A DNA stretch of 64,000 bases from Pseudomonadota bacterium (GTDB taxonomy: Bacteria > Pseudomonadota > Alphaproteobacteria > Rhizobiales > Stappiaceae). Location of the stretch: the NCBI GenBank assembly GCA_039195965.1, contig JBCCVB010000012.1, positions 1,172 through 65,171 of the forward strand, read 5' to 3'. Made by a program: the position numbers and the translations under genes. The notes beneath the pieces are model-generated. The model was not told the DNA's origin, did not search any database, and saw only the letters and a program-made list of their open reading frames with translations. Below are positions 18,968 to 22,113 of this stretch, one piece after another (within the stretch, counting starts at the first letter, position 1; each line of letters begins with the position of its first letter).

Positions 18968-19420
18968 TCAAGCTTCTTGCGAGGCCTTGTCCGATTTCCC
19001 TTCGCCAGGTTCCCGGTTCACCTGATCAATCCAGTTTTGCAGATTGTAGTAGGTTGTTATGCGGGCAATCTGACCGTCGCGGATTTCAAAGAAACTACCC
19101 GCCGGCAAATCGTAAGTCTGCCCGTTGGCAGGCGGCAGACCTTCGTCTGTGTTGATATAGGTGCCATGAACGATGAACTCCGCCGCCGCACGCGTGCCTT
19201 CTTCATTGACGAACAAGACGATGTCGGAAAGCCGCTCCTTGTAACAACGGGTCATGTGGACATTGAAAGACCAGAACTTGTCCTTGCCGATCCGCCGTTC
19301 GCCCTGATTGACGTCGTGGATCAGGTCTTCAGAGACCAGGCTTTCCATTTTCTTGGTATCGCCGGCATTGAAAGCGGCGAAGTAAGTGTCGATCAGAAAC
19401 CGGGACTGCTTGTTGGGCAT
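18968..19420 (-). CDS. Ketosteroid isomerase-related (SnoaL/NTF2-like) protein
   Basis: YFAAFNAGD...HDVNQG...AAAEFIVHGTY...YYNLQNW. Confidence 0.85.
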   Translation of the reverse strand: MPNKQSRFLIDTYFAAFNAGDTKKMESLVSEDLIHDVNQGERRIGKDKFWSFNVHMTRCYKERLSDIVLFVNEEGTRAAAEFIVHGTYINTDEGLPPANGQTYDLPAGSFFEIRDGQIARITTYYNLQNWIDQVNREPGEGKSDKASQEA

Positions 19421-19712
19421 GACATCTCACAGAAGCAAATTTGCAATTCGGCGGGAGTTTGCCCGCGCCGCGAACAGCACGCAAGAGGGACCGAAAAGTC
19501 TGGTTTACAGATCTTCACAAATTCCAGTCCAAAGCCATCGTGTCTCTTGTTCTGCAAATTCAGCGCAAAGCGTCATAGTTGCAATTTAGCAACATATTGT
19601 TGTATTTTAGCACCAACACTCATTGAGTGAGTATTTTCCCCTTGCACCTATGACCCGTTTCAACCTAAGACTTCGTCATCGGTCTCAAGACTGGTTCAGA
19701 TATCAAAGGTAT

Positions 19713-19728
19713 AGGCAATTTTCTTGCC
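19713..19728. promoter_or_regulatory. Candidate sigma54 (-24/-12) promoter
   Basis: AGGCAATTTTCTTGCC has GG-N10-GC with TT before GC. The site is palindromic, so its direction is ambiguous. Confidence 0.4.
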
Positions 19729-19790
19729 GCCCGCATGGTTCGGCATTGTCGTTTCCATGTACGGATACTGTATCAGAAGGTCGCGCGTAA

Positions 19791-19864
19791 TCGCATGAAG
19801 TTCATTGGTTGAACGCCAGGTATGTTGCCTGGAGGAAACAGGTTCGATTCCTGTCTTGCACGCA
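19791..19864 (+). ncRNA. tRNA-like unit 1 (pseudo-tRNA / tRNA mimic)
   Basis: D arm GTTC-attggtt-GAAC, anticodon arm CCAGG-tatgttg-CCTGG and T arm ACAGG-TTCGATT-CCTGT. Only 4 of 7 acceptor pairs form, there is no U33 and no CCA. Confidence 0.7.
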
Positions 19865-19938
19865 ACGGATAGCTCAGCTGGTAGAGCATCGGACGATTAA
19901 TCCGACGGTCGCGGGTTCAACTCCCGCTCCAAACGGCA
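19863..19938 (+). ncRNA. tRNA-like unit 2 (tRNA-Asn-like pseudo-tRNA / mimic)
   Basis: TA-GCTC-agctggta-GAGC, TCGGA-cgattaa-TCCGA, cggtc and GCGGG-TTCAACT-CCCGC. Only 3 of 7 acceptor pairs form, position 33 is G, and it ends GGCA. Confidence 0.8.
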
Positions 19939-19973
19939 AACCTATGGGTTCGGGTTCGACTCCCGGTCCGCCA
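19939..19973 (+). ncRNA. tRNA-like unit 3 (3' fragment: mini-hairpin + T arm + CCA end)
   Basis: AACC-tatg-GGTT, then CGGG-TTCGACT-CCCG, then gTCCGCCA. Confidence 0.6.
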
Positions 19974-20014
19974 TTTTATGGCAACAGCTTCAGGTGCTGT
20001 CTACAAAATTGGGA

Positions 20015-20295
20015 TTTGAAGAGGGCTTGTGACGGACCGGCTCTGCCTTTGCGCGACACGCACGAAGACAGGCCCGCCCTTCACCGGGAGCTCTTGTCCG
20101 GTCTTTGATCAAGGCCACGCCGCGTCGTCGCCGGGACTGTCTGTTCTCGAACGGGCACAACCTGCATTGATGCCGCAAAGCCCGCTGTTCAGAGATCCGC
20201 CGAGTGCCCTGCGCACTCTTCAGGTCTCCACATTCACACCCTCCGCCCTGTCTCGGGAGCGGTCGGTTTCCACCTACCTCCAACCCCTCTTTGAA
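20015..20295 (+). ncRNA. Putative ~280-nt structured non-coding RNA upstream of the SPFH gene
   Basis: The ends pair (TTTGAAGAGGG 20015-25 with CCCTCTTTGAA 20285-95; GACCG 20035-39 with CGGTC 20260-64) and enclose several nested helices. There is no credible ORF. Confidence 0.55.
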
Positions 20296-20344
20296 CAACG
20301 AAAGGACATGCCACGTGCCTTAGCGCAATGGAAGGAATATCGAA

Positions 20345-21505
20345 ATGATGGCTTTTCTTGATAAAATTCGCGGCCGCAGCCGCGTCGTGATCTACGAAAA
20401 CGAACGAGCGGTTCATCTGGTTAAGGGTGAACTGCAAGGCATTCTCGTACCTGGTGAGCACTACCTGAAAAATGGTAGGGGCACTCTGATGGTCGAGCGT
20501 CAGGACCTGACGATGCCGCTGTTCCGGTCTGAATATGAAAAAGCGCTTTTCGACAAGCTTCCCGAAGTCGCAGAAGAGCACTTGACCGTCGTCCGAACGA
20601 AACCGGGCGAAGTGGCCGTAGTGGAACGGGATCATCGCGTCTACAGGGTACTCGGTCCGGATCAGCAGCTTGTGCTCTGGACCGATGCCGGTCCTTGGAC
20701 ATGGACTGTCATTGATACAGCGTCTGAGCCGGAACTTTCCCGCAAGATGTTGCTTCGCCTCGGTGATGCAAAGCTGACGCAGCACTTCGAAGTCATCCAG
20801 GTGACCGAGGGCAGTGTAGCGTTGTTGTTCGTCGACGGCGTCATGACCAGGGTCTTGAACGCCGGTCTCCACGCTTTCTGGAAAGCCGGAGGAACAATGA
20901 CCAAAAAGCTCATCGACCTGAAGCGGCAGAGCCTTGACGTTACCGGCCAGGAAGTCCTGACGCTCGATCGGGTCACCATACGCATCAACCTGTCGGCCGA
21001 ATACCGGGTGGTAGATGCTATAAAGGCTGCCCAAGAGGTGAAAGACTTCTCCGACACGTTGTACCGGGCCCTGCAAATGGTGTTCCGCAAGCAACTCGGC
21101 GCCTTGAAGCTTGACCAGATCCTCGAGCGCAAAGGCGACGTGAACGCGGAGGCTGAAGCGTGGATCAAAACCGAAATGGCCAAGATCGGAGTTGAGGTCT
21201 TCGACATCGCCCTGAAGGATGTAATTCTTCCCGGTGAAATGCGTGAGATCCTCAACAAGGTGGTGACCGCAGAAAAGGAAGCGGAAGCCAACGTGATCCG
21301 GCGCCGCGAAGAAACGAACGCGACACGTTCGCTTTTGAACACCGCAAAGGTCATGGCCGAAAACCCGGTCATGCTGCGGCTGAAGGAGCTTGAGGCTCTG
21401 GAATCCATTGCGTCCAAAGTGGACCGCCTGACGGTTCACAACGGGACGAGCGGCCTGATGAACGATCTTGTTAGGTTACAGGATGAAAGCTCGGCAAAAG
21501 CCTGA
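20345..21505 (+). CDS. Slipin-family SPFH/band-7 protein
   Basis: SQLDVTGQEVLTLDRVTIRINL-like SPFH core and C-terminal RRREETNATRSLLNTAKVMAENPVMLRLKELE. Three N-terminal beta-rich repeats, no TM helix. Confidence 0.9.
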   Translation: MMAFLDKIRGRSRVVIYENERAVHLVKGELQGILVPGEHYLKNGRGTLMVERQDLTMPLFRSEYEKALFDKLPEVAEEHLTVVRTKPGEVAVVERDHRVYRVLGPDQQLVLWTDAGPWTWTVIDTASEPELSRKMLLRLGDAKLTQHFEVIQVTEGSVALLFVDGVMTRVLNAGLHAFWKAGGTMTKKLIDLKRQSLDVTGQEVLTLDRVTIRINLSAEYRVVDAIKAAQEVKDFSDTLYRALQMVFRKQLGALKLDQILERKGDVNAEAEAWIKTEMAKIGVEVFDIALKDVILPGEMREILNKVVTAEKEAEANVIRRREETNATRSLLNTAKVMAENPVMLRLKELEALESIASKVDRLTVHNGTSGLMNDLVRLQDESSAKA

Positions 21506-21511
21506 CAAACG

Positions 21512-21540
21512 ACGGCGCGGAATTGTCCGCGCCGTTTTCT
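21512..21540 (+). terminator. Intrinsic terminator between the slipin gene and kptA
   Basis: ACGGCGCGGA-attg-TCCGCGCCGT-TTTCT. Confidence 0.7.
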
Positions 21541-21564: not shown

Positions 21565-22113
21565 ATGAAAAACGACACAAAAATATCCAAGCAAATCTCG
21601 TTCTGGTTGAGACACAAACCGGAAGATGCCGGGTTGCGATTGACCAGTGACGGCTGGGTGCAGGTGAAAGAACTGCTAGGGGCATTCGACCGAACACAGA
21701 TGCCCTGCAGCCTCCAACAGTTGCAGCAGATCGTCGAGACCAACGACAAGAAACGGTTCGAGTTTTCCGAGGATGGTACTCTGATCCGCGCAAGACAAGG
21801 GCATTCAATCAGCATCGACCTGCAGCTGCCCCCAACCGAACCGCCGACCATCCTCTACCACGGGACAGCCACCCGGTTTCTATCCGGCATCCTGAAGGAA
21901 GGTTTGAAACCGATGAACCGTCACCACGTTCACTTGTCTGCCGATGCCGACACCGCTCGAACTGTGGGAGCAAGGCACGGCAAACCCGTTGTCTTGGTGG
22001 TGACATCTCAAATCATGCATGCGGCTGGCTTCGAGTTCTTCAAAACGGAAAATGGTGTCTGGTTGGTGGATCAGGTCCCACCGGGCCACCTGTCCTGCCT
22101 GGACAGCGATTGA
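21565..22113 (+). CDS. kptA: RNA 2'-phosphotransferase (KptA/Tpt1)
   Basis: SKQISFWLRH, DKKRFEF, RARQGHS, LYHGT, RHHVHLS and NGVWL. Confidence 0.95.
   Translation: MKNDTKISKQISFWLRHKPEDAGLRLTSDGWVQVKELLGAFDRTQMPCSLQQLQQIVETNDKKRFEFSEDGTLIRARQGHSISIDLQLPPTEPPTILYHGTATRFLSGILKEGLKPMNRHHVHLSADADTARTVGARHGKPVVLVVTSQIMHAAGFEFFKTENGVWLVDQVPPGHLSCLDSD

Follow-up and report, generated by a model that had tools for sequence, protein, structure and literature searches.

Genomic Context of the Locus

The sequence analyzed here, referred to as the window, is a stretch of 64,000 nucleotides whose host is a Roseibium species (Stappiaceae, Rhizobiales) with Roseibium sp. SCP14 and SCP15 as its nearest named relatives. 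All coordinates are positions in the window. The interval that was flagged for study (20015-20295) is housed in a 920-nt intergenic gap, which is flanked by a divergent SnoaL-like gene on one side and by three plus-strand genes on the other. These genes, together with a hairpin that separates two of them, are as follows.

18968-19420, minus strand: SnoaL-like gene, divergent from the slipin side
20345-21505, plus strand: SPFH/Band-7 “slipin” gene, 386 amino acids (Pfam Band_7, E = 7e-30)
21511-21536, plus strand: terminator-like hairpin between slipin and kptA (11-bp stem with 8 GC pairs, T-rich tail)
21565-22113, plus strand: KptA/Tpt1 RNA 2′-phosphotransferase gene (Pfam PTS_2-RNA, E = 4e-53; NCBIfam equivalog, 247.6 bits)
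After kptA, plus strand: MFS transporter gene, the third plus-strand gene

Expression of kptA may be separate or may occur by read-through past the hairpin at 21511-21536. Two RtcB homologues are encoded in the window's genome away from this locus (contig C61, 3665-4681; contig C8, 77449-78216).

Folding and Covariation of the 3′ Domain

The original prediction treated the flagged interval as a multi-helix RNA of about 280 nt. When folded by itself, the 281-nt interval has a minimum free energy of −108.9 kcal/mol (z = −2.56 against dinucleotide shuffles, with 4 of 200 shuffles as good), but the reverse strand folds almost as well (z = −2.37 against dinucleotide shuffles), and the evidence from single-sequence folding is therefore weak. 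Comparative evidence was obtained from 19 Roseibium orthologues that align over the whole gap. The consensus fold derived by RNAalifold defines a conserved core with the following parts.

20011-20228, plus strand: 3′ domain of 218 nt, the conserved core (consensus fold and covariation)
20011-20023 with 20216-20228, plus strand: P1, the closing helix of 13 bp (RNAalifold on orthologues)
20027-20038, plus strand: 4-bp hairpin inside P1 (RNAalifold on orthologues)
20039-20081, plus strand: variable hairpin region (consensus fold)
20082-20213, plus strand: long irregular rod, capped by the hairpin 20138-20157 (consensus fold)

Within the genus (20 Roseibium sequences), 93.9% of cells in this structure are paired and compensatory changes occur at 24 of the 57 base pairs. 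Not one of 500 column shuffles reaches the observed pairing, and controls in which the structure was slid along the alignment give 39-50%. Across several Rhizobiales families, pairing is 89%, with compensatory changes at 48 of 57 pairs and at 12 of the 13 pairs of P1; these pair counts are somewhat inflated because the cross-family alignment was fitted to the model's own structure. That alignment was made with a stricter cut-off because the near-symmetrical rod attracts antisense matches. Joint alignment and folding of Roseibium and Mesorhizobium sequences (MAFFT and RNAalifold) gave a poor consensus; the two genera were folded apart and joined via the covariance model. One G-U pair in P1 is the same in each of the 20 Roseibium sequences, and further pairs are frequently U-G, in keeping with an RNA encoded on the plus strand. 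What is conserved in the rod is its helices and its internal loops; the UUCG-type cap is not. Positions 20011-20228 are a genuine structured RNA on the plus strand.

The fold differs in its borders and in most of its helices from the one first proposed, which had been right in expecting a multi-helix RNA here. All 54 pairs of that earlier structure can form in the window, yet only two of its eight helices hold up against the 19 orthologues, and as a whole it is 62.9% paired in the alignment of 20 Roseibium sequences. The two that persist are the TGTCTGTT/AACGGGCA hairpin at 20138-20157 (95% paired in these 20 sequences), which caps the rod, and the GAGTGC/GCACTC hairpin at 20202-20218. The 11-bp helix thought to close the element (20015-20025 with 20285-20295) is 39.9% paired in the same alignment and is specific to the window's lineage. 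Pairing is likewise poorly kept for the CCCG/CGGG helix (35%), GCGAC-ACGC/GCGT-c-GTCGC (48.9%), GACCG/CGGTC (55%), AAGAC/GTCTT (64.9%) and GAGATC/GGTCTC (73%), all in the 20 Roseibium sequences. A self-complementary TTGATCAA at 20105-20112 had been suggested as a dimerization site. The palindrome is confined to the window's lineage: at this site the two nearest relatives have TCGATCAC and TTGGTCAA, and the others have unrelated sequence.

The GAGTGC/GCACTC hairpin (20202-20207 with 20213-20218) is 89% paired in the 20 Roseibium sequences and has two compensatory pairs, and its bases overlap those of inner P1 and of two rod helices. It may be an alternative conformation that forms at the expense of the inner end of P1, and a switch would then be possible.

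One explanation is that the gap has no function of its own, being a chance fold of GC-rich spacer, a decaying tRNA array, the scar of a mobile element or a small open reading frame. The marginal advantage of the single sequence over its shuffles on either strand, and the presence of open frames longer than 100 codons in this GC-rich region, are what such a spacer might give. The compensatory changes within the genus and across families, with controls far lower, argue strongly the other way, as do the recovery of the domain in other families by a model built from one genus and the fixed position of the domain relative to slipin across classes (see below). An unannotated small reading frame was considered separately and discarded, since no frame is open across species and length differences are not multiples of three. 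We regard the absence of any function as very improbable.

The expectation that the interval belongs to no known riboswitch or ribozyme family was borne out. A scan with the covariance models of Rfam 15, which include OLE, GOLLD, ROOL, raiA, HEARO, 6S and T-box RNAs, gave no match at the gathering score in 20011-20228, in the flagged interval 20015-20295 or at the corresponding place in the related loci. When the scan of 20011-20228 was relaxed to E ≤ 10, only chance-level matches far under the gathering scores were returned (mir-BART20, 17.1 bits, E = 2.6; COG3860, 11.6 bits, E = 9.6).

Organization of the Leader

The flagged interval is not a self-contained element of about 280 nt. Judging from the alignments, it is the 3′ structured domain of a composite conserved RNA of about 650 nt that carries two tRNA mimics at its center. 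Along the leader, the order is promoter, 5′ three-way junction, two tRNA mimics, hairpins, rod domain, linker and ribosome-binding site. Features outside the 3′ domain are listed here.

19578-19593, no strand assigned: dyad GTTGCAATTTAGCAAC (GTTGC-N6-GCAAC), lying about 50 nt before the −35 box; the GTTGC...C.AC columns are invariant in Roseibium and Mesorhizobium
19642-19671, plus strand: sigma-70-type promoter candidate, with −35 TTGCAC at 19642-19647, an 18-nt spacer and −10 TAAGAC at 19666-19671
19679-19784, plus strand: 5′ domain, a three-way junction with outer helices around two hairpins (31 pairs, 94-99% paired)
19792-19860, plus strand: tRNA mimic 1 (Rfam tRNA model, 34.5 bits, match at 19793-19859)
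19867-19930, plus strand: tRNA mimic 2, with a short acceptor stem (Rfam tRNA model, 46.2 bits, model positions 5-66)
19950-19966, plus strand: T-arm-like hairpin (93-99% paired)
19969-19983 and 19984-20000, plus strand: two stems of 4-5 bp with 7-nt loops (93-99% paired)
20229-20301, plus strand: linker, a lineage-variable hairpin and a CA-rich single-stranded tract (poorly conserved)
20302-20321, plus strand: near-invariant hairpin AAGGAC...GUGCCUU (98% paired, almost without variation)
20330-20336, plus strand: Shine-Dalgarno sequence GGAAGGA (unpaired in the consensus fold)

The consensus fold of 19676-20347 comprises 138 pairs in 24 helices and is 96% paired, with 56 pairs showing compensatory changes; slid controls give about 40%. 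The dyad, promoter boxes, 5′ domain, mimics, hairpins, rod, linker and ribosome-binding site are common to the Roseibium and Mesorhizobium alignments.

Transcription is predicted to start near 19678-19680. Across 20 Roseibium and 7 Mesorhizobium sequences, neither the TTG of the −35 box nor the TA of the −10 box varies. A sigma-54 promoter was also considered and rejected, because no GG-N10-GC is conserved and the boxes fit a sigma-70-type TTGCnn-N17/18-TAnnnC arrangement. The dyad upstream looks like a candidate operator for a regulator of the RNA-slipin unit. The 5′ domain (about 105 nt) has compensatory changes at 16 of its 31 pairs and takes an identical shape in Mesorhizobium. Among the hairpins that follow the mimics, the one at 19950-19966 is absent in some species or is swapped for a hairpin that lacks a T loop.

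No conserved pairing was found in the consensus fold for the linker (20229-20301). It holds the distal strand (20285-20295) of the terminal helix first proposed, and it is deleted in one clade of loci (L035-L039). RNAalifold also suggested distant pairing of the leader with the Shine-Dalgarno region; at 2-3 bp these pairs are too short to evaluate and were set aside. No intrinsic terminator was found between 20229 and 20344, and the conserved fold does not sequester the Shine-Dalgarno sequence, so neither form of riboswitch expression platform is present. The lack of a terminator, the unpaired Shine-Dalgarno sequence and the variable linker between domain and ribosome-binding site argue that the leader is not a classical expression platform.

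The two tRNA mimics sit 80-220 nt upstream of the flagged domain. In mimic 1, the acceptor, D and anticodon stems covary. The anticodon arms of both mimics (19816-19832 and 19890-19904) have covarying stems, and their loops vary between species in both sequence and length (6-9 nt). ARAGORN called no tRNA in this region of the window. The nominal anticodon identities among orthologues are Thr, Leu, Gln, Asn, Met or undetermined, and functional tRNAs were rejected as an explanation because neither a canonical 7-nt loop with U33 nor an anticodon is conserved among orthologues. On this comparison, the conserved property of the mimics is a predicted tRNA shape and not decoding. Relaxed constraint could account for the hypervariable anticodon loops, and so could diversifying selection acting on a putative decoy.

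Relation to Previously Described RNAs

The mimics match the “band-7-associated tRNA” class predicted by Burroughs and Aravind (2016). As that work is summarized by Wang et al. (bioRxiv 10.1101/312249), the RNA was predicted beside Band-7 proteins and RtcB and was proposed, without experimental validation, to be a cofactor analogous to the Y RNA that acts with Ro60; Band-7 protein and tRNA-like RNA were proposed as the scaffold and cognate RNA of repair systems. Here too, a tRNA-shaped RNA adjoins a Band-7 gene. Adjacency of a repair enzyme is mixed: KptA follows slipin at this locus behind a terminator-like hairpin, with RtcB elsewhere in the genome, and some related loci have RtcB next to slipin and others no repair gene. 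The two arrangements differ in the repair partner, which is RtcB there and KptA or none here. They differ also in the flagged rod of about 218 nt, which is not tRNA-like and constitutes an extra module, as does the 5′ domain of about 105 nt in alphaproteobacteria. Neither the rod nor the 5′ domain is mentioned in the accessible literature, which excludes the original text of Burroughs and Aravind (2016), and the locus was not found in a text search of a paper on Bradyrhizobium non-coding RNAs. PaFlo8 is assigned to the rtc locus in a 2026 survey of Pseudomonas aeruginosa SPFH proteins, which does not mention an RNA (PMC13086221). What was already predicted in 2016, as far as the summary of that work goes, is a tRNA-like module beside Band-7 proteins; what is new, as far as we have found, is a structural domain that is absent from Rfam and is part of a predicted but uncharacterized RNA-protein system. 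The 2016 RNA would then be one module of a far larger RNA, which alters the choice of constructs for testing the system.

A second point of comparison is the bacterial Y RNA YrlA with its partner Ro60 (Rsr) (RF02553; Chen et al., RNA 2014, PMC4201824). Both RNAs combine a tRNA-like module with a helical module, protein-binding in YrlA, and both are encoded beside a protein partner, a putative one in the present case, and RNA-repair genes. In contrast to YrlA, the helical module here lies 3′ of the mimics and is not formed from paired 5′ and 3′ ends, the RNA is about 650 nt long rather than about 100-200 nt, and the genome lacks Ro60: the TROVE/Ro60 profile PF05731 had no match in the window's genome, and positive controls were matched. 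The YrlA model RF02553, whose gathering score is 69, reaches 25.4 bits here, and its match is confined to 19830-19895, across the junction of the mimics.

Distribution and Linkage to Slipin

With model R1, built from Roseibium sequences only, the domain is recovered in Mesorhizobium (E values down to 1e-12), where it lies after the mimics and before the slipin start. The model also detects the domain, usually at full length, at slipin loci of several other Rhizobiales families, and further families are reached with a second model, R2. The window's own genome contains one copy by R1 search. Note that in the R1 genome searches 5 of thousands of GC-rich candidates were scored per genome; elsewhere, the slipin protein served as the anchor.

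The geometry of the locus is well kept. At nearly all of 79 slipin loci from Roseibium and Mesorhizobium, the T arm of mimic 2 precedes the start codon by about 380-430 nt. One or two same-strand upstream matches to the tRNA model, followed by a spacer of 365-550 nt, are present at 20 of 20 order-wide slipin loci; tRNA-model matches beside slipin were obtained at 11-12 of 15 phylum-wide loci. Slipins at 36-41% identity occur in Bradyrhizobium, Xanthobacteraceae, Methylopila, Pseudomonas, Burkholderia and Ralstonia, and their loci keep the order of two mimics, a spacer of 265-430 nt and slipin. The spacer folds as a covarying rod both in the Bradyrhizobium type (21 of 50 pairs compensatory) and in the Pseudomonas type (33 of 48). 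R2 detects neither type of spacer. These rods are equivalent to the Roseibium domain by position and shape, and homology is not implied.

Genes beyond slipin are less constant. KptA follows slipin at 14 of 19 Roseibium loci and at no Mesorhizobium locus; RtcB lies directly after slipin at at least 21 of 80 loci of the Pseudomonas/Burkholderia group; and no repair gene adjoining slipin was found at Mesorhizobium or Bradyrhizobium loci. Slipin is the sole gene adjacent in every lineage examined. Because slipin is the only constant neighbor and the partners are KptA, RtcB or none, the invariant unit is RNA plus slipin. The original placement of the RNA directly upstream of the slipin gene was correct and holds throughout.

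Of 401 genomes sampled from the order, 49 carry the slipin subfamily (in 31 of 149 genera), as do 10 of 36 genomes of the genus, and the subfamily is a patchy accessory trait. Patchiness of this kind is one of several observations that fit a decoy or sensor, in which the mimics would draw anticodon nucleases or other ribotoxins as bait and the rod would insulate the cut or report it, for example where cleavage alters the stability or translation of the slipin/KptA message. The combination of hypervariable anticodon loops with covarying stems and the linkage of repair enzymes to the locus point the same way. Induction of the rtc system by damaged tRNA fragments is established and also counts toward this explanation. 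However, neither slipin nor KptA matched any defense-system model of PADLOC, the loops are explained equally by absent constraint, and bait offers no reason for the strong conservation of P1 and of the internal loops of the rod. We consider this function quite unlikely.

Structure of the Slipin Protein

No transmembrane helix was found in slipin, and the protein is predicted to be soluble. An AF2 model (pLDDT 79, pTM 0.55) has three beta repeats of about 68 residues each at its N terminus, then an SPFH domain and a helix some 60 residues long. When this model was searched with Foldseek, stomatin, HflK/C, prohibitin, erlin and flotillin aligned over about 245 columns. Among the 50 matches listed, only entries for major vault protein align over about 470-490 columns (E = 2e-10), and so among those matches only major vault protein can span the N-terminal repeats. 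The predicted fold thus resembles a shortened major vault protein, and the nearest structural relatives of the modeled slipin are predicted to be SPFH proteins that form cages or rings.

The eukaryotic vault particle consists of major vault protein, vault RNA, TEP1 and vPARP. The modeled slipin shares with major vault protein its beta repeats at the N terminus, its SPFH-like domain and its long helix, and a small structured RNA is linked to it. KptA, an NAD+-using enzyme that can ADP-ribosylate nucleic acids, adjoins slipin as vPARP is associated with vaults. Differences are that slipin has 3 repeats where major vault protein has 9, that identity is 12-15%, and that no relation of the RNA to vault RNA is detectable. 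We intend a resemblance and not a claim of membership. If the comparison is nevertheless pressed further, the composite RNA and the SPFH protein might form a bacterial vault-like RNP, in which a cage of “mini major vault protein” would bind or enclose the RNA via the rod and would display or sequester the mimics, with KptA or RtcB acting there on those RNAs or on damaged tRNAs. We offer this as a speculative and rather unlikely proposal. If true, it would provide a natural substrate for bacterial Tpt1/KptA and a prokaryotic counterpart of the arrangement of vault, vault RNA and vPARP.

Proposed Role of the RNA

As our main reading, we propose that the rod acts as a platform for protein binding, through which the tRNA mimics would be linked to an SPFH assembly, a proposal that we judge evenly poised between being right and being wrong. 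The leader RNA would be transcribed from the conserved promoter together with slipin, and RNase P, RNase Z or RNase E may cut at the mimics. The rod would then bind a protein, most plausibly the co-encoded soluble SPFH/Band-7 slipin, by which the mimics would be tethered to or packaged by an SPFH assembly that might take the form of a cage. Such an RNA-protein particle could serve a response to RNA damage or its repair. The enzyme would be KptA at this locus and RtcB in Pseudomonas and Burkholderia; Mesorhizobium and Bradyrhizobium have none next to slipin. Protein bound to the 5′ UTR might, in addition, regulate slipin translation by feedback. For this scheme, we infer transcript ends, processing and co-transcription from sequence, and the role of slipin in RNA binding is putative.

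The strict cis position before the start codon fits a pure 5′ UTR regulator equally well. Under such an arrangement, the domain and mimics would be an operator or stabilizer that sets slipin translation or mRNA half-life, either by binding a protein or a tRNA-related signal, comparable to the case of ThrRS, or by protection of the 5′ end left after cleavage by RNase P or RNase Z, and no stable RNP would be formed. The domain is always on the same strand as slipin and directly upstream of its start with no terminator between them, and the closing helix of the Pseudomonas type ends about 30 nt from the AUG. In Roseibium, the domain is followed by an invariant hairpin and the Shine-Dalgarno sequence, and competition between inner P1 and the alternative hairpin at 20202-20207/20213-20218 could supply the regulatory change. 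Against these points, the Shine-Dalgarno sequence is free in the consensus fold, the alphaproteobacterial linker of 30-100 nt that separates the domain from the ribosome-binding site is variable and partly deleted, and a rod of about 220 nt with a 5′ domain and two mimics exceeds the needs of known translational operators. Moreover, the RNA-slipin pair moves as a unit among repair contexts (KptA, RtcB or none). A purely cis-acting role is possible but somewhat doubtful in our estimation.

ThrRS of E. coli binds the tRNA-like operator of thrS, and both that operator and T-box leaders resemble the present case in that a tRNA-related structure lies in the leader of the same transcript as the regulated gene. 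The present leader differs from them in having no gene for an aminoacyl-tRNA synthetase or for amino-acid functions downstream, no terminator/antiterminator or specifier, no Rfam T-box match and a Shine-Dalgarno sequence left unpaired by the consensus fold.

The platform and the cis-regulatory readings overlap if slipin binds its own leader. Both roles offered by the original prediction, that of a cis-regulatory leader and that of an RNP partner, stand as the leading readings.

To our knowledge, large bacterial non-coding RNA structures that are supported by covariation and have no known function are rare. The RNA described here is obligatorily linked to a single protein subfamily in several Rhizobiales families; a folded domain is found at the equivalent place in related loci from Bradyrhizobium, Pseudomonas and Burkholderia. 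The system bears on the role of soluble SPFH proteins and on whether vault-type RNA-protein particles have prokaryotic relatives. It bears also on what bacterial Tpt1/KptA acts on; we know of no bacterial pathway that makes 2′-phosphate RNA junctions.

Additional Slipin Loci

At the RtcB-linked loci of Pseudomonas, Burkholderia and Ralstonia, two mimics are followed by a covarying rod of about 200 nt, with about 30 nt between its end and the start codon. Loci with two mimics and a rod include that of a relative of P. aeruginosa PaFlo8 (PMC13086221). In the Roseibium metagenome-assembled genome E1E2, a typical locus is accompanied by a second slipin copy (66% identity) on a contig of 2008 nt, and the rod domain of this second copy is of the Mesorhizobium type (54 bits with R1). 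This suggests either lateral transfer or contamination during binning.
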